Numbered from the stretch's first letter, positions 1,148 through 53,441 are shown. The stretch: 64,000 bases of DNA from Escherichia coli (GCF_003334765.1 NZ_QOWT01000020.1); one strand, 5' to 3'. Notes: generated by a model not told the origin, from the sequence alone. Program-made: numbers and translations.

Positions 1148-2820
1148 TGGCTGCGCAAGGGTTCTTACTGATCGCCACGTTTTTACTGGTGTTAATGGTG
1201 CTGGCGCGTCCTTTAGGCAGCGGGCTGGCGCGGCTGATTAATGACATTCCTCTTCCCGGTACAACGGGCGTTGAGCGCGTACTTTTTCGCGCACTTGGCG
1301 TCTCTGACCGTGAGATGAACTGGAAGCAATATCTTTGTGCCATTCTCGGCCTGAACATGCTGGGGCTGGCGGTGCTGTTTTTTATGTTGCTCGGTCAGCA
1401 CTATCTGCCGCTTAATCCACAGCAGTTGCCAGGGCTGTCGTGGGATCTGGCGCTGAATACCGCCGTCAGCTTTGTCACCAATACCAACTGGCAATCTTAT
1501 AGCGGTGAAACCACGTTGAGCTATTTCAGCCAGATGGCGGGCTTAACGGTGCAAAACTTTCTTTCTGCCGCCAGCGGGATTGCGGTGATTTTTGCCCTCA
1601 TCCGTGCGTTTACCCGCCAGAGCATGAGCACGCTCGGGAATGCCTGGGTCGATCTGCTACGCATCACGTTATGGGTGCTAGTCCCTGTGGCGTTGTTGAT
1701 TGCACTGTTTTTTATTCAACAAGGTGCGCTGCAAAACTTTCTGCCTTATCAGGCTGTGAATACCGTTGAAGGAGCGCAACAGCTGTTACCCATGGGGCCT
1801 GTAGCTTCTCAGGAAGCGATCAAGATGCTCGGTACTAACGGCGGTGGCTTCTTTAATGCCAACTCGTCGCATCCGTTTGAAAACCCAACCGCACTGACCA
1901 ACTTCGTGCAGATGCTGGCGATCTTCTTGATCCCAACGGCGCTGTGCTTTGCCTTTGGTGAAGTGACGGGCGATCGCCGCCAGGGGCGCATGTTGCTGTG
2001 GGCGATGTCAGTGATTTTTGTCATCTGCGTAGGCGTGGTGATGTGGGCAGAAGTTCAGGGTAATCCTCATCTGCTGGCACTGGGCACGGACAGCAGCATC
2101 AATATGGAAGGTAAAGAGAGCCGTTTCGGCGTGCTGGTCAGTAGCCTGTTTGCGGTCGTGACGACGGCGGCTTCCTGTGGCGCGGTGATTGCGATGCATG
2201 ATTCGTTTACCGCTCTCGGTGGCATGGTGCCGATGTGGCTGATGCAAATTGGTGAAGTGGTGTTCGGCGGTGTCGGTTCTGGTCTTTACGGCATGATGCT
2301 GTTTGTCCTGCTGGCGGTGTTTATTGCCGGGCTGATGATTGGTCGTACACCGGAATATCTGGGTAAAAAAATCGACGTACGCGAGATGAAACTGACTGCA
2401 CTGGCAATTCTGGTTACCCCGACGCTGGTGCTGATGGGCGCGGCGTTGGCGATGATGACCGACGCCGGACGTAGCGCCATGCTCAACCCTGGCCCGCATG
2501 GTTTTAGCGAAGTGCTGTACGCCGTGTCATCCGCCGCTAACAACAACGGCAGCGCCTTTGCCGGATTAAGCGCCAACTCTCCGTTCTGGAACTGTTTACT
2601 GGCGTTCTGCATGTTTGTCGGTCGCTTCGGGGTGATTATCCCGGTGATGGCAATTGCCGGTTCGCTGGTGAGTAAAAAGAGCCAAGCCGCCAGCTCCGGC
2701 ACGCTGCCAACGCACGGCCCGCTGTTTGTTGGCCTGTTAATCGGCACCGTGTTGCTGGTTGGCGCACTGACCTTTATCCCTGCCCTGGCGCTTGGTCCGG
2801 TGGCGGAATATCTCTCCTGA
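1147..2820 (+). CDS. kdpA: K+-transporting ATPase subunit A (channel-like)
   Basis: 557-aa [21 protein letters not shown]...; start chosen at the ATG overlapping the kdpF stop rather than the track ORF start at 1003. Confidence 0.95.
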
Positions 2821-2842
2821 TGATATTGAGTGAGCACTGAAT

Positions 2843-4891
2843 ATGAGTCGTAAACAACTGGCGCTATTCGAACCAACACTTGTCGTTCAGGCGCTGAAAG
2901 AAGCGGTGAAAAAATTAAACCCGCAGGCGCAATGGCGCAATCCGGTGATGTTTATCGTCTGGATCGGCAGTCTGCTGACCACCTGTATTAGCATCGCGAT
3001 GGCAAGCGGTGCGATGCCCGGCAATGCGCTGTTTAGCGCGGCCATTAGCGGTTGGCTGTGGATCACCGTACTGTTCGCTAATTTCGCCGAGGCGCTGGCA
3101 GAAGGCCGCAGTAAAGCGCAGGCCAACAGTCTGAAAGGGGTGAAAAAAACTGCCTTTGCCCGCAAGCTGCGTGAGCCGAAATATGGCGCTGCGGCGGACA
3201 AAGTTCCTGCCGACCAACTTCGTAAAGGCGATATCGTACTGGTAGAAGCTGGCGATATTATCCCCTGCGATGGTGAAGTTATTGAAGGGGGTGCATCGGT
3301 CGATGAAAGCGCCATCACCGGGGAATCGGCACCGGTGATCCGTGAATCCGGCGGCGATTTTGCCTCCGTCACCGGCGGCACGCGTATTCTTTCTGACTGG
3401 CTGGTGATTGAGTGTAGCGTTAACCCCGGCGAGACATTTCTGGATCGGATGATCGCGATGGTGGAAGGCGCACAGCGACGCAAAACGCCGAACGAAATTG
3501 CCCTGACCATTCTGCTGATTGCCCTGACTATCGTCTTTTTACTGGCAACCGCCACGCTGTGGCCGTTTTCCGCGTGGGGCGGTAATGCAGTCAGCGTAAC
3601 GGTACTGGTGGCGCTGCTGGTCTGTCTGATCCCAACCACTATTGGCGGCCTGTTGTCAGCGATCGGCGTCGCCGGGATGAGCCGGATGCTAGGCGCGAAT
3701 GTGATTGCCACCAGCGGACGTGCAGTTGAAGCGGCAGGTGACGTTGACGTTCTGCTACTGGATAAAACCGGCACCATCACACTCGGTAACCGTCAGGCGT
3801 CGGAGTTTATCCCCGCGCAGGGCGTGGATGAAAAAACGCTGGCTGACGCCGCACAACTGGCTTCGCTGGCTGATGAAACGCCGGAAGGCCGCAGTATTGT
3901 GATCCTCGCCAAGCAGCGTTTTAACCTGCGCGAGCGCGATGTGCAGTCGCTCCATGCCACCTTTGTACCGTTTACTGCGCAAAGCCGGATGAGCGGGATC
4001 AACATCGACAACCGCATGATCCGTAAAGGTTCTGTCGATGCCATTCGTCGCCATGTTGAGGCTAACGGTGGTCACTTCCCTACCGATGTTGATCAAAAAG
4101 TCGATCAGGTTGCGCGTCAGGGAGCCACGCCGCTGGTGGTGGTGGAAGGTTCTCGTGTGCTGGGCGTTATTGCGCTGAAAGATATCGTCAAAGGCGGTAT
4201 TAAAGAGCGCTTCGCCCAGCTGCGCAAAATGGGCATTAAAACGGTGATGATTACCGGCGATAACCGTCTGACTGCCGCCGCGATTGCTGCGGAAGCGGGT
4301 GTCGATGATTTTCTCGCCGAAGCGACACCGGAGGCCAAGCTGGCATTGATCCGTCAGTATCAGGCGGAAGGTCGTTTGGTAGCGATGACCGGCGACGGCA
4401 CCAACGATGCTCCGGCGCTGGCGCAGGCAGATGTCGCGGTGGCGATGAACTCCGGCACCCAGGCGGCGAAAGAGGCGGGCAATATGGTCGATCTCGACTC
4501 TAACCCGACCAAGTTGATCGAGGTGGTGCACATTGGCAAACAGATGCTGATGACCCGTGGCTCGCTGACCACCTTCAGCATTGCCAACGATGTGGCGAAA
4601 TACTTCGCCATTATTCCGGCGGCATTCGCGGCAACGTATCCGCAGTTAAATGCGCTGAACATCATGTGCCTGCATTCGCCCGACTCCGCAATCCTCAGTG
4701 CGGTGATTTTCAACGCCTTGATTATCGTCTTTTTGATTCCCCTGGCGTTAAAAGGCGTGAGTTATAAACCGCTTACCGCTTCTGCCATGTTGCGCCGTAA
4801 CTTATGGATTTACGGTCTGGGTGGGCTGCTGGTGCCGTTTATCGGTATCAAAGTCATTGATTTACTGCTGACCGTTTGCGGTCTGGTGTGA
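2843..4891 (+). CDS. kdpB: K+-transporting P-type ATPase catalytic subunit B
   Basis: 682-aa [25 protein letters not shown]... with P-type ATPase motifs (DKTGT at the phosphorylation site, TGDN, GDGTND). Confidence 0.96.
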
Positions 4892-45065: not shown

Positions 45066-46736
45066 ATGGATAATGCAGAACTCGCCATTGGTATCGATCT
45101 CGGTACTACCAATAGTTTAATTGCCGTCTGGAAAGACGGTGCCGCGCAATTAATTCCAAATAAGTTCGGTGAATATTTAACACCATCCATAATTAGCATG
45201 GATGAAAATAATCATATTTTAGTCGGAAAACCGGCTGTATCACGGCGTACTTCGCATCCGGATAAAACGGCAGCGTTATTTAAACGTGCAATGGGCAGTA
45301 ATACCAACTGGCGGTTAGGCAGCGACACATTTAACGCGCCAGAACTGTCCTCTTTGGTATTACGCTCATTAAAAGAAGATGCCGAAGAATTTCTGCAACG
45401 TCCGATTAAAGATGTGGTGATCTCCGTTCCAGCTTATTTCAGCGATGAACAACGCAAGCATACCCGTTTAGCAGCGGAGTTAGCCGGGTTAAATGCGGTA
45501 CGCTTAATTAATGAACCCACAGCAGCTGCGATGGCGTATGGCCTGCATACCCAACAAAATACCCGTTCGCTGGTGTTTGATCTCGGTGGCGGCACGTTTG
45601 ACGTTACGGTGCTTGAGTACGCCACGCCGGTGATTGAAGTTCACGCCTCCGCTGGCGACAACTTTCTTGGTGGCGAAGATTTTACCCATATGCTGGTCGA
45701 TGAGGTTTTAAAACGCGCGGATGTCGCCAGGACCATGCTTAACGAGAGTGAACTGGCAGCCTTGTACGCCTGTGTGGAAGCGGCAAAATGTAGCAATCAA
45801 TCGCCATTGCACATTCGCTGGCAGTATCAGGAAGAAACGCGGGAATGCGAATTTTACGAGAACGAACTGGAAGATTTGTGGTTGCCGCTGCTCAATCGCT
45901 TGCGAGTGCCGATTGAACAGGCGTTGCGCGATGCGCGTCTGAAGCCGAGTCAAATCGACAGTCTGGTGCTGGTTGGCGGCGCGTCACAAATGCCGCTGGT
46001 GCAGCGAATCGCCGTGCGTCTGTTTGGCAAATTACCGTATCAAAGTTACGATCCGAGCACCATTGTCGCGCTGGGCGCAGCAATCCAGGCCGCCTGCCGC
46101 TTACGCAGTGAAGATATTGAAGAGGTAATCCTCACTGATATTTGCCCTTACTCGTTGGGCGTTGAAGTTAACCGCCAGGGCGTTTCCGGCATTTTCTCGC
46201 CGATTATTGAACGAAACACCACTGTGCCCGTGTCGCGTGTAGAAACTTATTCAACCATGCACCCGGAACAGGATTCAATTACGGTTAACGTCTATCAGGG
46301 AGAAAACCACAAAGTTAAAAACAACATTCTGGTGGAATCCTTCGATGTGCCGTTGAAGAAAACCGGGGCTTATCAGTCGATTGATATTCGCTTTAGTTAT
46401 GATATCAACGGGTTGCTTGAAGTTGACGTGCTTCTGGAAGACGGCAGCGTTAAGTCCAGAGTGATTAACCACAGCCCGGTAACATTGAGCGCGCAGCAGA
46501 TTGAAGAGAGTCGGACGCGGTTATCCGCATTGAAAATTTATCCGCGCGATATGCTCATCAATCGCACCTTTAAAGCCAAACTGGAAGAGTTGTGGGCGCG
46601 GGCGCTGGGTGACGAGCGAGAAGAGATCGGCCGGGTGATCACCGATTTTGATGCGGCGTTGCAGTCAAACGATATGGCCCGCGTGGATGAAGTTCGGCGG
46701 CGGGCGAGCGATTATTTAGCCATTGAGATCCCATAA
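45066..46736 (+). CDS. hscC: Specialised Hsp70 chaperone HscC
   Basis: 556-aa ORF MDNAELAIGIDLGTTNSLIAVWKDGAAQLIPN... with Hsp70 ATPase signatures (DLGTTNS, DLGGGTFD). Confidence 0.95.
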   Translation: MDNAELAIGIDLGTTNSLIAVWKDGAAQLIPNKFGEYLTPSIISMDENNHILVGKPAVSRRTSHPDKTAALFKRAMGSNTNWRLGSDTFNAPELSSLVLRSLKEDAEEFLQRPIKDVVISVPAYFSDEQRKHTRLAAELAGLNAVRLINEPTAAAMAYGLHTQQNTRSLVFDLGGGTFDVTVLEYATPVIEVHASAGDNFLGGEDFTHMLVDEVLKRADVARTMLNESELAALYACVEAAKCSNQSPLHIRWQYQEETRECEFYENELEDLWLPLLNRLRVPIEQALRDARLKPSQIDSLVLVGGASQMPLVQRIAVRLFGKLPYQSYDPSTIVALGAAIQAACRLRSEDIEEVILTDICPYSLGVEVNRQGVSGIFSPIIERNTTVPVSRVETYSTMHPEQDSITVNVYQGENHKVKNNILVESFDVPLKKTGAYQSIDIRFSYDINGLLEVDVLLEDGSVKSRVINHSPVTLSAQQIEESRTRLSALKIYPRDMLINRTFKAKLEELWARALGDEREEIGRVITDFDAALQSNDMARVDEVRRRASDYLAIEIP

Positions 46737-46744
46737 ACACGGCT

Positions 46745-46775
46745 GCCGGATGCGGCGTAAACGCTGCATCCGGCA
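46745..46775. repeat. REP palindrome between hscC and djlC
   Basis: gccggatgcggcgtaaacgctgcatccggca. Confidence 0.8.
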
Positions 46776-46795
46776 TCGGCGCAAAAAACACATCG

Positions 46796-48247
46796 TCAGC
46801 TAAACAACATCGCGATTTTGCCGAGAGCATAACCTATCACCAGCACCGTTAAACTGATTTTGATAATGCTGGTAATGCTCTGTGGTTTTTCACCCTCATC
46901 ATTTTTTTCTTCATGATTTTCAGGTGTTGGCTCATCGACATCTTCATCCTCCGGCTCGAGTTTCACTTTCGTCAAAAGCATCCGGGTGACAATGGCCTCT
47001 AATGGATGAGCATCTCCGCCTTCCAGCCTTGTATTAAGACGGGCCAGCATCTCTTGTTTCGGAAACGCTTCAAGTACTACCTGTTCCGCTACCCGATACA
47101 AATCCAGGAACGGTGAATCTTGCTCTGTCTCGCTACCGACTCTCGATTTCCACCACGCCCATGCTTTGCGCTTGAAGAATAACGACTCAATAAACGATTG
47201 ACCTAACGGCGATAATTTTCCGCTATGTAAAATCTCCGCCCATAACAGCCGCGTCCGGGCGCTCTCACCAGGAACATATTTCAGCGGTTGACCTTGCGCA
47301 TCTACCATGCTCCGCGCTTCGATAACCATCACTAATAACGCGAAATAATCCGGGCAATGACGCTTGCTCCACTGCAACAACAAATTATCAGCTTGTGTAG
47401 ATGGGTAACTTTCCCAGTACGCGCAGAGATCGGCAAGCAGGCTTTCCCCCTCGCCGCAGTACAAACGTTGTGCACACAAGTAATACCGGGCATCTTCGCT
47501 TTCTGGTTCTTCCGTTTGCCACTGTTGAGCGACAGGAATGAGTTCCGCCATACCTGTTTGCACCGAGCTGTACCAGCGCAACAGTTTGCGATGTAACTTT
47601 GCATCATCAGGAATTAACCACGGACCTTCCATCGCCAAAAACGCAGTGACATAGTCAGGATGGTAACGGCAGCAACGTTCCAGCGCGAAGTAATACTCAA
47701 CAGTCTGGTTCTGCAACGCAATGGGATATTCCAGAAGGCTAAGGAAATCGAAACAATCACCAGCCTGAATGGCCTCAAGAAAAGCCTCCCTTTCTTCCTC
47801 ATCCATTCCTTCGCTGTCATTAAATGAATGCCAGTTCAAACGCTCTGCCAGCAAAGAAGCACAATTTAATGAAAGATATCGCGCTTCTATGGCGATTGCA
47901 CACAGCGGCCAGCGTAATTGATCGACATCCTCCATGTTCCAGGTATTTAATTGCTGAATAAATTTCTGCCAGGCGGAAGGCTGAAAACGATCACTTTCTG
48001 AATCCAGTAATGTCCTGAATGCACGTAGTATTTCATGTTCAGCGGCAGCATCTTTTTCTTCATCATCTGCTTCCTCGACAGGATTTACCGCCAGTCGCAG
48101 GGCCTCTTCATAGGCCTGGCGTAATGCTTTAAACCCTTGCGGATCGGTTTCGGGATGACACAACGGTAAGCGAGCAAGATAAGCCTGGCGGATAATGTCT
48201 ATTTGCGTCGTGCTTTCAATTTCGAGGATTTGCCAACATGTTTTCAT
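46796..48247 (-). CDS. djlC: J-domain co-chaperone DjlC (YbeV) with hydrophobic C-terminal tail
   Basis: 483-aa [52 protein letters not shown]...; C-terminus ...[20 protein letters not shown]. Confidence 0.92.
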
Positions 48248-48951
48248 AGGTCGCTCACATCCTTAAGCGTTACCGGGCATTCAGACTGGACAGTTAATGG
48301 CTGCCAGGGAAGCGTGGCATAGAAACGATCGCTTCCCGCTGCCAGCTCTTCGAACATACGACTCCCGGCGCTATCGTATTTGTACAGGGTTAGCGCCTCG
48401 CGTAGCGAAGTGTTGTCTTCGCACTGAGAAGATTGCCAGTAGAGACGTCCTAACGAATAGGCGGAAAAATAGTGCATCCAGCTGTGATAGTAATGGTGAG
48501 CTCGTACATAGACGCGCGATTGCAGCCATAAACTCTCTTCTTCCGTCAGCCACTTGTTGAGCACACCGACCCGTGACAGAAACCCCATTCGAACATAATC
48601 CCAGGCTTTGATTCCCCCTTCCCCACAGCACATAGCGGTTTGGGCAACGAATTGGGTATAAATCAACCCTCTCTCCGAGCCACCAGCAATTAATGCTTTC
48701 CACTCTTCAGGGGAAGAGCGATGCCATGTCAGATATAAGCCAGCTAAATCATTGGCATGACCATCATCAGTCATCTGATAAATAGTCTGAATTAAATCAT
48801 CACGATTATTTATTCCCCAGGATGATGAGAGCTCGAATTCTTTTATCCCAGTATACATTTTTGGCGAGTCATGCGCGGGTTTGCAACCCTGATTAAGTAT
48901 TTCCATGGGCGCAGAAAGCGCAAAAAGAAGATATTGTTCTTCCTTATTCAT
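48244..48951 (-). CDS. ybeU: DUF1266-like protein YbeU
   Basis: 235-aa [36 protein letters not shown]...; its stop overlaps the djlC start by 4 nt. Confidence 0.9.
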
Positions 48952-49052
48952 TTGTTAATAATCCCTTAAGTGCATTAACTGACTACTTTTTTATTATTGA
49001 TGAGTATAAACTTGACGCTTTCAAAATAAAAAGAAAATCGAAGCATTCACAC

Positions 49053-49607
49053 ATGAATAAAAAATTAATGTATATATTCGCAATTTTTATAGTTGCAGCA
49101 ATTACCTGTATTAGCCAACCCAAGAAAACGACGTTGCGTGATAAAGCCATGGTGAATTATGCCTTTGATTATTTAAGCTCACCGGGCAGTCTTCCATTCA
49201 CCACGGCAGCCACGGAGCTTTCCGCGATTCATGGTCACTCAACGTCGCAATATCGCCTTGGAGAATTTTATCTTCATGGTAGCGACGGTAAACCACTGGA
49301 TTATACACAGGCGAGATACTGGTATGAGCAATCAGCGGAACAGGAAAATCCACGCGCGCAAAGTAAACTGGGGTGGATCTACCTCAAAGGTCTGGGGGTC
49401 AAACCCGACACCCGTAAAGCAATTCTCTGGTATAAGGAAGCAGCTGAACAAGGGTATGCTCATGCTCAATATACTTTAGGTTTGATCTACAGAAATGGCT
49501 CAGGTATTAATGTTAACCATTATGAATCTCAAAAATGGTTAAAACTGGCCGCCAAACAACATTACAAAAATGCGGAAAGATTACTTGCCGGGCTTCCCGC
49601 ACATTAA
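49053..49607 (+). CDS. ybeT: Sel1-repeat protein YbeT with N-terminal hydrophobic segment
   Basis: 184-aa [26 protein letters not shown]...; repeated ...YxLGxxYxxGxGVxxDxxxAxxWYxxAAxQG... units. Confidence 0.9.
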
Positions 49608-49616
49608 CGTCGACTG

Positions 49617-51044
49617 TCACCCGAACAGATGGAGTATTTTCCCTATCAAACCAGCAAAGATAAAAATATAGAAAATAATTTTAATGATGCCCAGACAGCC
49701 AGGCCCACCATCGTCAACGGGCATTGGCTGCGGTTGCGGCTCCGGTTCAACAGTTTGCTTCTCGGTAAAATTCGCCGCCTGAATTAATAATCGACGAATA
49801 ATTAATGCTTCCAGTGGACAACGATTTTCTGCATCAAGGCGGCTCACAATCGGCATTAATGATTCTTCTGTAGGTTGGCAGGCCTGCACTAATTGTTTGG
49901 CAACTAGATATAATGGCCATAAGGTATGTTCTGTATCACGCGTGAGTGAGATCCGCGGCTTACGTCCTTTGTGCAAAACCATCTCGACCAGTGAACGCCC
50001 CAGCGCAGAGAGTTTTTCATCGCTGAGTATTTCGTATAAATGAAAACGCGTACGGGCGCTGTCGCCGGGGACATAAAGTAGCGGTTTTCCCTGATCGTTA
50101 ACCAGATCACGCGCTTCAATCATCATCACCAGTAATGGGTAATAATCGACCCGATGCTGACGGCACCATTGCAACATTAAAGCATCCGCCTGGGTGGAGG
50201 GATACTCGCGCCAGTAGTCACAAAGTTCTGCCAACAGGCTTTCGCCTTCTCCACAATAGACGCGTTGCGCGTATTCATAATAAGGCGCATCTTCATTATC
50301 AGGTTCAGTTTCCCGCCATGACTGGGCGTAATCCAGAAGTTCGGGGATATCCAGGCGACCTGCGCTATACCAGCGGAGTAAATTTCTGTGCAGTTTTGCA
50401 TCATCGGGGATAATCACTGCGCGATGTTGCGCTAAATACAATGTCAGCCATTGTGGATGCGATGACCAAATCCGAGCGAACATTTGGTAAAAATCGATGG
50501 TGTCATTTTGCACGGCAACGGGCAGATGCAGAATGGTCTGGAAGTTAAAAACATTCCCCTTCGCAATGGCATATAAAAAGGATTCCAGTTCTTCTTCGTC
50601 TATTTCCCCGGTATTTTCCTCCTGTAACCACCGCAATCTTTCTGCTAATAACACCACGCACTCGAAGGATAAATGGGCAGTGTTCATGGCGATTGTGCAC
50701 AGCGACCAGCGTAATTCATCAATCTCCTCCATCGAGCAATAATTTAATTGCTGAATGAATCGCTGCCAGGCGGAGGGCAGAAAACGTTCACTATCAGAGG
50801 CAAGTAACGCACGAAAGGCGAGCAGAATTTCATGTTCTGCTACCTCATATTCTTCTGGTTGCCAAACAGATTTAGCAGGCGACTGCGCAATCCGTAGCGC
50901 CTCCTCATACGCCTGACGAAGTTGTTTAAAACCCTGCGGATCGGTTTCTGGATGAAAGGACGGTAACAGCGCCAGATAAGCGCGGCGGATAATATCGACG
51001 TCAGTCGTTTCCTCTATATCGAGGATCTTCCAGCAATTTTTCAT
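49617..51044 (-). CDS. djlB: J-domain co-chaperone DjlB (YbeS) with hydrophobic C-terminal tail
   Basis: 475-aa [52 protein letters not shown]...; C-terminus ...[23 protein letters not shown]. Confidence 0.92.
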
Positions 51045-51748
51045 AGGTCGCTCATATCCTTAAGCGTTTCCGGGCATGCAGAATAGTAAGCCAATGGTTG
51101 CCAGGACAAGGTAGGGTAATACGCATCATCACTGGCAAATAATTGATAAAACATATCATTGCCGGAATCGTCGTATTCTTTACGCGCTAAGAATTCGCGT
51201 AATAAAGGCAGATGATCATCTTCGGGAGACTGCCAATATTGCCGACCAAAGGTATAACCGGCAAAGTATTGCCGCCAGTTACTATAATAACGTAGAGCCC
51301 GTAGATGAATGCGCGACTGGATCCATAGACTTTCTTCTTCGCTCAACCAGTTATTAAGTACGCCCATTCGGCTTAAAAAACCCATCCGGACATAATCCCA
51401 GGCTTTGATTCCCCCTTCGCCACAGCATTCGGCGGTGCTGGCGACAAATTGCGCATAAGCCTGACCTTGCTCATTTAGTTCAGCAAGATAGTCACGCCAT
51501 TCACATGGCGAATAACGAAACCAGCGGTGATAAAACCCTGCCAACCGAGCGGCATGACCGTTATCGATCATTCGGTGAATTGTGCGCAGCAGGTCATCAC
51601 GGTCATCAATTCCCCATGAGGAAGAAAGGTCAAAAAAGCATGTACCTAAATACATTTTGGGTGATGAATGCGAAGGTAAACAGCATTCATTGCGTATTTC
51701 CATCGGAGTGGAAAGTGCAAACAATATTTTTTGCGACTCCATGTCCAT
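51041..51748 (-). CDS. ybeR: DUF1266-like protein YbeR
   Basis: 235-aa [36 protein letters not shown]...; paralogue of YbeU; 4-nt overlap with djlB. Confidence 0.9.
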
Positions 51749-51911
51749 ATAATTTATCCTTAAATATTCATTAAATGAATATTAGCCGCATTGCGAGGCT
51801 CGTTTATTTATACTTTTCTGACGCGACATAATACGCATAAAATAAGGCTTACGCAAAAATGGAACACATAAAAATATAATATGTTTTATCTGCAACCATA
51901 AGGAAATGATA

Positions 51912-52889
51912 ATGATTTTCACGTCAAGTTGCTGCGATAATTTATCAATAGATGAGATTATCGAACGTGCTGAAAAAGGCGATTGCGAGGCTCAATATAT
52001 TGTTGGGTTTTATTATAATCGCGATAGCGCAATTGATTCTCCGGACGACGAAAAAGCCTTTTACTGGCTGAAGCTGGCCGCTGAGCAAGGTCATTGTGAA
52101 GCACAGTATTCCTTAGGGCAAAAGTATACCGAGGATAAAAGCCGTCATAAAGATAATGAGCAAGCCATCTTCTGGCTGAAAAAAGCTGCCCTACAAGGCC
52201 ATACTTTCGCTTCCAACGCCCTTGGCTGGACACTGGATCGTGGAGAAGCCCCCAATTATAAAGAAGCGGTTGTCTGGTATCAGATAGCCGCGGAGAGCGG
52301 AATGTCTTATGCGCAAAATAATCTTGGGTGGATGTACAGAAATGGCAACGGAGTCGCAAAAGACTATGCGCTGGCATTTTTCTGGTACAAACAAGCTGCA
52401 TTACAAGGCCATAGTGACGCGCAAAACAATCTGGCCGATCTTTATGAAGACGGAAAAGGCGTTGCTCAAAACAAGACACTCGCCGCATTCTGGTATTTGA
52501 AAAGCGCACAGCAGGGTAATCGGCACGCCCAGTTTCAAATTGCATGGGATTATAACGCTGGCGAAGGGGTGGACCAGGACTATAAGCAAGCGATGTACTG
52601 GTATCTGAAGGCTGCCGCTCAGGGGAGCGTCGGCGCTTACGTCAACATCGGTTATATGTATAAACACGGACAAGGCGTTGAGAAAGATTATCAGGCTGCC
52701 TTTGAATGGTTTACGAAAGCCGCTGAATGCAATGACGCCACTGCCTGGTATAACCTGGCCATTATGTATCACTACGGAGAAGGAAGACCTGTCGATCTCC
52801 GACAGGCTCTCGACCTGTATCGTAAAGTTCAGTCATCCGGAACCAGAGATGTCAGTCAGGAAATTCGTGAGACTGAAGATTTACTGTAG
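51912..52889 (+). CDS. ybeQ: Sel1-repeat protein YbeQ
   Basis: 325-aa protein MIFTSSCCDNLSIDEIIERAEKGDCEAQYIVGFYY... with at least seven Sel1-like repeats; start at the second in-frame ATG of the track ORF. Confidence 0.88.
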   Translation: MIFTSSCCDNLSIDEIIERAEKGDCEAQYIVGFYYNRDSAIDSPDDEKAFYWLKLAAEQGHCEAQYSLGQKYTEDKSRHKDNEQAIFWLKKAALQGHTFASNALGWTLDRGEAPNYKEAVVWYQIAAESGMSYAQNNLGWMYRNGNGVAKDYALAFFWYKQAALQGHSDAQNNLADLYEDGKGVAQNKTLAAFWYLKSAQQGNRHAQFQIAWDYNAGEGVDQDYKQAMYWYLKAAAQGSVGAYVNIGYMYKHGQGVEKDYQAAFEWFTKAAECNDATAWYNLAIMYHYGEGRPVDLRQALDLYRKVQSSGTRDVSQEIRETEDLL

Positions 52890-52958: not shown

Positions 52959-53441
52959 TTACGGCTCAAACGGGCGTCTCTGGAACTGGTCATGACCACA
53001 TTTCGGGCATAGCGTCAGCACTTCCGGTGTGTAGATCGGGAGATGGAAGTGACATTTCTCGCAGACCAGATTTCCCAGCCCGACCACTTCTCCGCTGTGA
53101 TAAACCCCATGATGATTGAGGTCCTGGAAAACTTCGCGCCATTCAAGCTGCGTTTTATCGGTGATGTCTGCCAGCTCCTGCCACAAGCTTTCTTTAATCA
53201 CCCGCATAAAGACGCTGTCAGATTCTTCTTTCAGGCTCTCTTCATAGCTCATGGCGAACTCTTCCAGGTCACGTCTGACAGCTCGCGTCAGCTCATCGAC
53301 CTCGGTTCGCGTTAACTCCCCTGTTTTTATTACGCGCTCGCGCGCCTGTTCCACCAGTGCGTCGATATCACGTTCGCCATTGCGCAGGCGTTCGCTCAGT
53401 GACGCAACCAGTTCACGGTAATATTGAGCAACCTTGTTCAT
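52959..53441 (-). CDS. ybeL: DUF1451 zinc-ribbon protein YbeL
   Basis: 160-aa ORF MNKVAQYYRELVASLSERLRNGERDIDALVEQ...; C-terminal CEKC...CPKCGH zinc ribbon. Confidence 0.9.
   Translation of the reverse strand: MNKVAQYYRELVASLSERLRNGERDIDALVEQARERVIKTGELTRTEVDELTRAVRRDLEEFAMSYEESLKEESDSVFMRVIKESLWQELADITDKTQLEWREVFQDLNHHGVYHSGEVVGLGNLVCEKCHFHLPIYTPEVLTLCPKCGHDQFQRRPFEP

Follow-up and report, generated by a model that had tools for sequence, protein, structure and literature searches.

Which proteins does the specialized Hsp70 HscC of Escherichia coli work with? This question is raised by a locus in a stretch of 64,000 nucleotides of E. coli DNA (GCF_003334765.1, NZ_QOWT01000020.1; the whole stretch is referred to as the window), where seven genes lie in the order gltL-rihA-[hscC djlC ybeU ybeT djlB ybeR ybeQ]-ybeL-leuS (positions 45,066 to 52,889; Table 1). 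Bacteria have only three types of Hsp70, and HscC is one of them. Two of its neighbors, djlC and djlB, code for J-proteins, and each is preceded by a gene coding for a DUF1266 protein (ybeU and ybeR, respectively). The remaining two genes, ybeT and ybeQ, code for Sel1 repeat proteins. The original prediction interpreted this island as a duplicated, membrane-associated Hsp70 targeting module, with the DUF1266 proteins as well as the Sel1 proteins acting as adaptors or clients. We find that the conserved unit consists of a DUF1266 gene, a gene for a J-protein with an HPE motif that is coupled to it by an ATGA overlap, and a gene for an HscC-type Hsp70.

The locus itself and the pairing of HscC with DjlB and DjlC are already known. 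The HscC-DjlC/DjlB system is attributed to Kluck et al. 2002 (as summarised in PMC8215388 and PMC13254874) and is identical to that of the window, being made up of hscC, djlC and djlB themselves, with their HPE J-domains and tail anchors. As partners of HscC, only DjlB and DjlC are named in reviews from 2021 and 2026 (PMC8215388; PMC13254874). The open-access literature searched holds no link of YbeU, YbeR or DUF1266 with HscC, and “DUF1266” as a word occurs there in one paper only, in an H-NS transcriptome table. As published, the system is a two-component one (Hsp70 and J-protein), whereas the unit described here also has a translationally coupled DUF1266 protein and a variable C-terminal module on the J-protein. 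The deeply conserved third component, previously unrecognized, and the modular tail of the J-protein are what is new.

The unit emerged from a comparison of gene neighborhoods. A peptide-pattern scan (one genome per species) resulted in 70 loci from 11 genera of Gammaproteobacteria, and their open reading frames (ORFs; +/-8 kb) were searched with the seven E. coli proteins. In 66 of the 70 loci, a DUF1266 gene is accompanied by a J-protein gene, which starts at the DUF1266 stop codon, and by an hscC gene. The genera with this unit include Erwinia, Rahnella, Pragia, Limnobaculum, Pectobacterium, Gilliamella, Pseudomonas, Marinobacter, Klebsiella and Escherichia. Of the four loci that lack it, three lie on contigs that are cut off within the module, and the fourth is from Leminorella (see below). 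A stop/start overlap is found in each of the 68 pairs (ATGA in about 65, TAATG in three), and all 68 J-proteins carry HPE. In 60 loci, hscC and the J-protein gene are convergent, and in two they are co-directional; the median gap between the J-protein and HscC stop codons is 10 nt. Clustering of all ORFs gave no fourth conserved gene, and seeming extra clusters are antisense shadow ORFs.

Two peculiarities of gene arrangement were encountered. In many Pseudomonas, the J-protein gene and the convergent hscC gene share 4 nt at their stop codons (e.g., 6911-6914 in L020 and 5780-5783 in L023), so tight a tail-to-tail arrangement being unusual. The DUF1266 gene of Erwinia persicina resides on plasmids of 130-165 kb (NZ_CP082142.1, NZ_CP101614.1, NZ_CP022727.1, NZ_CP146505.1) and not on the chromosome; two surveyed contigs (L013 and L016) suggest that the whole module is located on plasmids in this species. 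These megaplasmids are the only plasmids found to carry copies of the module.

The linkage persists at large evolutionary distance. Even DUF1266 proteins that are only 22-24% identical to YbeU precede a J-protein with a DjlB_C_2nd region beside an Hsp70. This was found in three loci, which have a single DUF1266-J pair (L078), two pairs in tandem (L080) or two pairs on either side of the Hsp70 (L077). In Clostridium carboxidivorans P7 (L084), the gene order is Hsp70 (566 aa, 44% identity to HscC), J-protein (858 aa, HPE) and DUF1266 protein (222 aa), and a similar operon with the same order was found in L087. The predicted tie of YbeU and YbeR to HscC, DjlB and DjlC is thus supported by the 66 surveyed loci, by the three highly diverged ones and by C. 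carboxidivorans P7.

In the window, the two overlaps between DUF1266 and J-protein genes, as predicted, are both real and have an identical form (...GAC CTA TGA AAA, with the stop codon TGA inside ATGA), within GACCTATGAAAA. The 7.8-kb stretch shows 100% identity to RefSeq E. coli chromosomes bearing these seven gene names. All seven genes are intact, and their coordinates are exactly those given in the original prediction.

The DUF1266 proteins YbeU and YbeR were expected to be paralogs, and this is upheld by a pairwise alignment over all 235 residues without gaps (59% identity, E=1e-104). Residues 41-216 of YbeU match model positions 2-175 (of 175) of PF06889 (DUF1266) in Pfam (E=4.7e-45). 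Both proteins are full-length members of this family, YbeR by its 59% identity to YbeU. The family is large, as a YbeU-like profile matches 1434 cluster representatives (50% identity, E<=1e-3) in a library of 1.84 billion proteins. Many members are exported, are fused to TPR or Cu_amine_oxidN1 domains, or form tandem repeats; the members linked to HscC are small, cytoplasmic, single-domain forms. A confidently predicted model of YbeU, built with a 94-sequence alignment, is an all-alpha bundle of 12 helices (predicted local distance difference test, pLDDT, 94.1; predicted template modeling score, pTM, 0.91). Among the Foldseek matches listed for this model in AFDB50, all are DUF1266 proteins. 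The PDB contains neither sequence relatives of YbeU nor a structural neighbor of the all-alpha model. The model does not point to a function but would be compatible with a protein-binding helical domain.

Some database entries related to YbeU call for caution. A protein of the whipworm Trichuris trichiura (AFDB A0A077ZGN2, 932 aa, “DnaJ-like subfamily C member 13”) shows 97% identity to E. coli YbeU, which indicates bacterial contamination of the whipworm assembly. An E. coli protein of 627 aa (AFDB A0A2X3M2D5) is a YbeU-DjlC fusion and probably results from a frameshifted gene model. Neither was accepted as a natural fusion. At the end of a contig from Paenibacillus sp. USDA918EY (L009, 8001-8387), a stretch is 100% identical to YbeU residues 81-209; most likely, this is contamination or a chimeric contig.

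The J-proteins DjlC and DjlB are paralogs as well, with 49% identity from end to end (E=6e-156), in agreement with the original prediction. DjlC is composed of an N-terminal J-domain, a central helical region specific for DjlB and DjlC (the new Pfam family DjlB_C_2nd) and a C-terminal hydrophobic tail. The J-domains are highly divergent, the Pfam DnaJ match being only marginal (E=0.036). Both proteins contain HPETDP, with HPE replacing HPD. This is a known peculiarity of DjlB and DjlC (PMC10410713; PMC13254874), and HPE is the single tolerated HPD variant (PMC13254874). The predicted hydrophobic tails are present: each protein has a single strong C-terminal segment, with hydropathy maxima at residues 466-482 (DjlC) and 451-467 (DjlB). 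DjlC is tail-anchored and inserts into the inner membrane (PMC8215388). That both J-proteins stimulate HscC, as had been stated, is reported for DjlC, which stimulates the HscC ATPase; the DjlB part is an assumption (PMC8215388). Deletion phenotypes have been reported for Cd2+ and UV, Cd2+ sensitivity being common to the hscC deletion and the djlB djlC double deletion (PMC8215388).

Outside the Enterobacteriaceae, the J-protein is much longer (about 890-920 aa). Its J-domain and the next ~300 residues align with E. coli DjlB and DjlC, and a long helical region follows. The C-terminus of these long forms is a DUF805 membrane domain (Pfam E=1.8e-7, Pseudomonas). DUF805 is the tail in most other Gammaproteobacteria, while the Enterobacteriaceae have a single tail anchor. 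The enterobacterial tail-anchored J-proteins of about 475 aa are a shortened derivative. Still other tails occur: the J-protein of L077 ends with five Sel1 repeats, and those of C. carboxidivorans P7 and L087 end with TPR repeats, each without a predicted transmembrane segment. Thus, the proposed membrane association applies to Proteobacteria (by tail anchor or DUF805), but it is not universal.

A few J-protein genes are aberrant. In two loci with duplicated pairs, one J-protein has lost HPE (L077, 1361-3586, “HTPSENNS”) and another is devoid of an N-terminal J-domain (L080, 3164-5785), which suggests J-like, non-stimulating paralogs. Escherichia sp. MOD1-EC7003 (L005) has an extra, third DjlB/C-like gene in the gap between ybeL and ybeQ (1648-3986). 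It is split into a 93-aa ORF with an HPE J-domain and a 344-aa ORF whose C-terminal tail is hydrophobic. It is not preceded by a DUF1266 gene, and a 321-aa protein with a signal-like N-terminus is encoded after it.

The third component, HscC, has the length expected of its type (about 556 aa, with a short C-terminal region) and shows 100% identity to the RefSeq “molecular chaperone HscC”. It is neither DnaK nor HscA, because its scores against the respective NCBIfam models are far under the cut-offs of both families.

With some confidence, we interpret the locus as a three-component specialized Hsp70 machine, which K-12-like strains of E. coli have in duplicated form, with the DUF1266 protein as adaptor or regulatory subunit and partner of its cognate J-protein. 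The J-protein (DjlC or DjlB) would be the scaffold, its HPE J-domain recruiting and activating HscC, as the literature shows for DjlC. The central DjlB_C_2nd region may hold the cognate DUF1266 protein (YbeU with DjlC, YbeR with DjlB); we infer this from the universal coupling of the genes, their co-duplication and the retained pairings (see below). The ATGA overlap should yield DUF1266 and J-protein together and in matched amounts. The exchangeable C-terminal module of the J-protein (tail anchor, DUF805, or Sel1/TPR repeats) would set the site of action, and the DUF1266 protein would act as substrate-selecting or regulatory subunit of the J-protein. HscC would then remodel whatever the complex of J-protein and DUF1266 protein holds at the inner membrane. 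By tandem duplication of the pair, two specificities might be served by a single HscC. YbeQ may provide, as a separate protein acting in trans, the repeat module that is fused in cis to other J-proteins. As a direct partner, YbeT is the least likely candidate, and it probably has no contact with the cytoplasmic machinery.

Alternatively, the DUF1266 protein may be a dedicated client rather than an adaptor. In this case, the J-protein would hand YbeU or YbeR over to HscC, and HscC would change the conformation or assembly state of this client. We consider this possible but clearly on the unlikely side. Linkage and coupling argue for it to the same extent as for the adaptor, and the present data fit client and adaptor alike. 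The most conserved DUF1266 motif (GGIxAWDxxRxxFLxRxG) is hydrophobic with arginines, and a preference of HscC for positively charged peptides has been reported (PMC8215388). However, the motif is located in helices predicted with very high confidence (pLDDT 97-98) and is kept in DUF1266 proteins that are unconnected to Hsp70. It looks structural and not like an exposed degron for chaperone binding.

A client role would also be suggested by analogy with the HscA-HscB-IscU system of Fe-S cluster assembly, where a dedicated Hsp70 and a dedicated class C J-protein likewise handle a small co-encoded protein. This is an analogy and no claim of membership, and there are differences. IscU and DUF1266 are non-homologous (DUF1266 being all-alpha, without a PDB neighbor), the J-protein at HscC loci is membrane-anchored or repeat-bearing, and there are no cofactor-assembly genes near the HscC module. 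Neither the HscC nor the HscA system needs a nucleotide exchange factor (PMC8215388). Another analogy may be seen in mitochondrial Pam18-Pam16-mtHsp70 and in Sec63-BiP, where a J-domain, fixed at a membrane along with a tightly associated small partner, recruits a soluble Hsp70. Those systems, however, have no relation in sequence or fold to the one described here, which lacks a translocon component and has soluble forms of the J-protein (with Sel1 or TPR repeats).

Several points weigh against the three-component interpretation. Exported proteins in which DUF1266 is combined with TPR or Cu_amine_oxidN1 have no Hsp70 or J-protein neighbors. As DUF1266 also occurs outside Hsp70/J contexts, it is not intrinsically part of a chaperone. 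Leminorella (L010) has a DUF1266-J pair but no HscC within 8 kb. Our survey began from DUF1266, and, being based on a single peptide pattern, it was non-exhaustive and missed the E. coli and Salmonella reference genomes. Finally, Klebsiella spallanzanii has one short pair and hscC at the same ybeL-proximal site without any Sel1 gene. Such a short J-protein without a Sel1 gene argues against an obligate role of YbeQ.

Table 1. Features of the hscC island and its flanks in the window (positions counted from the first nucleotide of the 64,000-nt stretch).
Feature	Position	Strand	Remarks
rihA	44047..44982	+	conserved left flank of the island, outside the module
hscC	45066..46736	+	specialized Hsp70, 556 aa
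inverted repeat	46744..46775	.	15 nt, near-perfect (93% complementary, 2-nt loop), between convergent hscC and djlC
djlC	46796..48247	-	J-protein, 483 aa, tail-anchored
ybeU/djlC overlap	48244..48247	-	stop/start overlap ATGA, 4 nt
ybeU	48244..48951	-	DUF1266 protein, 235 aa, upstream of djlC
ybeU-ybeT intergenic region	48952..49052	.	divergent, AT-rich (GC 0.41 vs ~0.52 in flanks)
ybeT	49053..49607	+	small Sel1 protein, 184 aa, 3 Sel1 repeats
djlB	49617..51044	-	djlC paralog, 475 aa, HPE J-domain, tail anchor
ybeR/djlB overlap	51041..51044	-	stop/start overlap ATGA, 4 nt
ybeR	51041..51748	-	ybeU paralog (DUF1266), 235 aa, upstream of djlB
ybeR-ybeQ intergenic region	51749..51905	.	divergent, AT-rich (GC 0.38)
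ybeQ	51906..52889	+	Sel1 protein, 327 aa, 8 Sel1 repeats, cytoplasmic
ybeL	52959..53441	-	conserved right flank of the island, outside the module

The inverted repeat downstream of hscC looks like a repetitive extragenic palindromic (REP) element or a bidirectional terminator. The island as a whole is slightly AT-rich, and most so in the two divergent promoter regions. The region between ybeU and ybeT is likely to contain promoters and to be a target of H-NS.

If the DUF1266-J pair is the conserved core, how did the apparent symmetry of the island arise, in which each pair is accompanied by a divergently transcribed Sel1 gene? The duplication is still visible at the DNA level as blocks that are 72-77% identical at a constant spacing of 2797 nt (47567-48661 vs 50364-51458). 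This register is confined to ybeU/ybeR and to the 5' portion of djlC/djlB. Matches between the Sel1 genes have other spacings and fall outside of it. The proposed duplicated module is thus real with respect to the DUF1266-J pair, but the Sel1 genes are not part of the duplication. Pairs have also been duplicated independently in L077 and L080; the two DUF1266 copies of L077 share 49% identity, against a maximum of 35% with others.

In Salmonella and Citrobacter enshiensis, the two pairs are directly tandem, the order being ybeL | <-ybeQ | ybeR->djlB->ybeU->djlC | <-hscC. The best matches in Salmonella and Citrobacter keep YbeR with DjlB and YbeU with DjlC. From this comparison, we conclude that the tandem duplication of the pair predates the split of Escherichia, Salmonella and Citrobacter, with ybeQ being present by then, and that ybeT was inserted later between the pairs, in Escherichia only. 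The Sel1 genes are late additions, confined to particular lineages, and the symmetry of one Sel1 gene per pair is therefore a secondary, lineage-specific accident. In the gap between hscC and rihA, Salmonella (L075, 15082-16320) has a 412-aa ORF with no Pfam match on record, which is absent from E. coli and C. enshiensis.

This bears on the proposal that each DUF1266-J pair has its own Sel1 protein, YbeT or YbeQ, as an integral adaptor or client. In Escherichia, each Sel1 gene is indeed divergent from a pair, and the position of ybeQ is kept in Salmonella and Citrobacter. The transcripts of ybeT and ybeU-djlC are both upregulated upon overexpression of SlyA (PMC5797941). The ratio of nonsynonymous to synonymous substitution rates (dN/dS) is about 0.1 for ybeT and ybeQ. 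In addition, J-proteins of the DjlB/C family elsewhere carry fused Sel1 or TPR repeats, which makes a functional link between J-proteins and Sel1 repeats plausible but not obligate. On the other hand, a Sel1 ORF within +/-8 kb was found in none of the 63 complete survey loci from outside Escherichia, but only in three Escherichia loci. At this position, ybeQ is restricted to Escherichia, Salmonella and Citrobacter. The ybeT gene is present in the Escherichia loci (L005-L007) but absent from those of Salmonella and Citrobacter, and K. spallanzanii has neither gene. A triad of DUF1266, J-protein and Sel1 genes is thus not conserved as a unit. A functional link of this J-protein family with Sel1/TPR repeats, and hence perhaps with YbeQ, is favored by a single line of evidence, the J-proteins that have Sel1 or TPR tails.

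The two Sel1 proteins also differ from each other, in length and in number of repeats (PF08238 in Pfam; Table 1) as well as in predicted compartment. YbeT has the predicted N-terminal hydrophobic segment (residues 5-21), and YbeQ has none. YbeT is probably exported; this signal or anchor segment would place it on the opposite side of the membrane from the J-domain. YbeT and YbeQ match only at the level of repeat units (32-36% identity, with many alternative registers), which reflects membership in a family and is not evidence for co-duplication. Of the three presumed paralog pairs, YbeT/YbeQ is therefore the one that did not hold up upon alignment. Altogether, we regard an integral role of one Sel1 protein per pair as improbable.

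Is the island functional in E. coli at all? Among 5426 complete E. coli genomes, 3663 have at least 80% of the island, about 786 (~14%) have part of it, and 977 (~18%) have none (in a megablast search with the island as query, the median number of matching places per genome was two). In E. coli without the island (e.g., L004), rihA is 44 nt from ybeL. Partial islands (L001 and L002) result from deletions of single modules and retain pseudogene remnants, including a frameshifted djlC, a ybeQ with an internal stop codon and gene remnants. In E. coli O169:H41 strain 2014EL-1345-2 (L003, 2532-3482), the island is replaced by genes for a DUF6985 protein and two hypothetical proteins. Thus, the rihA/ybeL site can hold alternative cargo, here three unrelated small genes. 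In four genera (Escherichia, Salmonella, Citrobacter and, with K. spallanzanii, Klebsiella), the island is found at one and the same rihA/gltL-ybeL site, so that its polymorphism in E. coli is attributed to loss and not to mobile gain. Flanking repeats, an integrase or mobility genes were not found at the island in the window. We considered a mobile genomic island and rejected it, given the fixed site and the absence of these features.

Expression of the island is strongly silenced by H-NS. The transcripts of ybeT and ybeU-djlC are listed in the H-NS regulon (PMC5797941), and a DUF1266 gene is upregulated 308-fold in an hns mutant of the enteroaggregative E. coli strain 042 at 25 C (PMC7582179). 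In exponentially growing cells, the levels of HscC, DjlB and DjlC are too low for detection by proteomics (PMC8215388). Together with the frequent deletion and pseudogenization, this might indicate a cryptic, decaying relic without present function in E. coli. We consider this extremely improbable. When two further Escherichia species are used for comparison, hscC has a dN/dS of 0.02-0.03, the remaining six genes have values of 0.06-0.15, and the flanks have values of 0.005-0.023. The values of 0.02-0.15 reflect purifying selection, so that the genes are not decaying where they are kept, and none of the seven is disrupted in the window. Conservation of the core module extends from Clostridia to Pseudomonas, and the Cd2+ and UV phenotypes mentioned above also argue against a relic. 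The island in E. coli is H-NS-silenced, dispensable under ordinary conditions and under purifying selection.

An accessory island that is silenced by H-NS and slightly low in GC might also be an anti-phage defense or other conflict module that uses an Hsp70 motor, and the original prediction had noted a resemblance to defense modules. The polymorphism in E. coli and the rare alternative cargo would fit, as would the fast divergence seen in the J, DUF1266 and Sel1 proteins (46-64% identity between E. coli and Salmonella, vs 83% for HscC and 91-92% for the flanks). Some defense systems contain Hsp70-like domains (CoCoNuTs, PMC10542128). In a screen by transposon-directed insertion-site sequencing (TraDIS), ybeT was among the top insertion-enriched genes upon challenge with phage Arnold, but the Keio ybeT knockout was lysed by this phage like the wild type (2025 preprint, 10.1101/2025.12.01.691526). 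When compared to PADLOC-DB v2, five of the seven proteins had no match, and YbeT and YbeQ had only sub-threshold repeat alignments to the PtuA N-terminus. Searches for the module in phages and viral contigs revealed no copies. The core module contains no effector-like domain (nuclease, protease, pore, NADase). The single chromosomal site in four genera reflects loss rather than mobile gain, there is no integrase or flanking repeat, and the dN/dS values of about 0.1 give no sign of diversifying selection on whole genes. We thus consider a defense role, which all of these searches leave unsupported, very unlikely.

We return to the machine of HscC, J-protein and DUF1266 protein. A stronger claim would make the third component obligate in HscC systems, from Clostridia to E. 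coli, the DUF1266 protein, whose fold has no representative in the PDB, being either the specificity or regulatory subunit of the HPE J-protein or its sole dedicated client. We advance this tentatively, as a proposition that falls a little short of even chances. In a more radical version, it is tempting to speculate that this is a new Hsp70-driven conflict or stress-response system, in which the exchangeable J-protein tail selects the target.

For genome annotation, the symmetry of the Sel1 genes in K-12 is lineage-specific and should not be propagated as a conserved triad. For the DUF1266 family, which has 1,400 clusters, the linkage described here provides a first functional context. With its exchangeable C-terminal module, the J-protein offers a clue as to how a single Hsp70 can be directed to different places. 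Should a DUF1266 protein prove to be always co-encoded and coupled with the J-protein, this would provide a concrete experimental handle on HscC, more than 20 years after its description. If the stronger claim of an obligate third component is true, its identification would reveal what HscC does.

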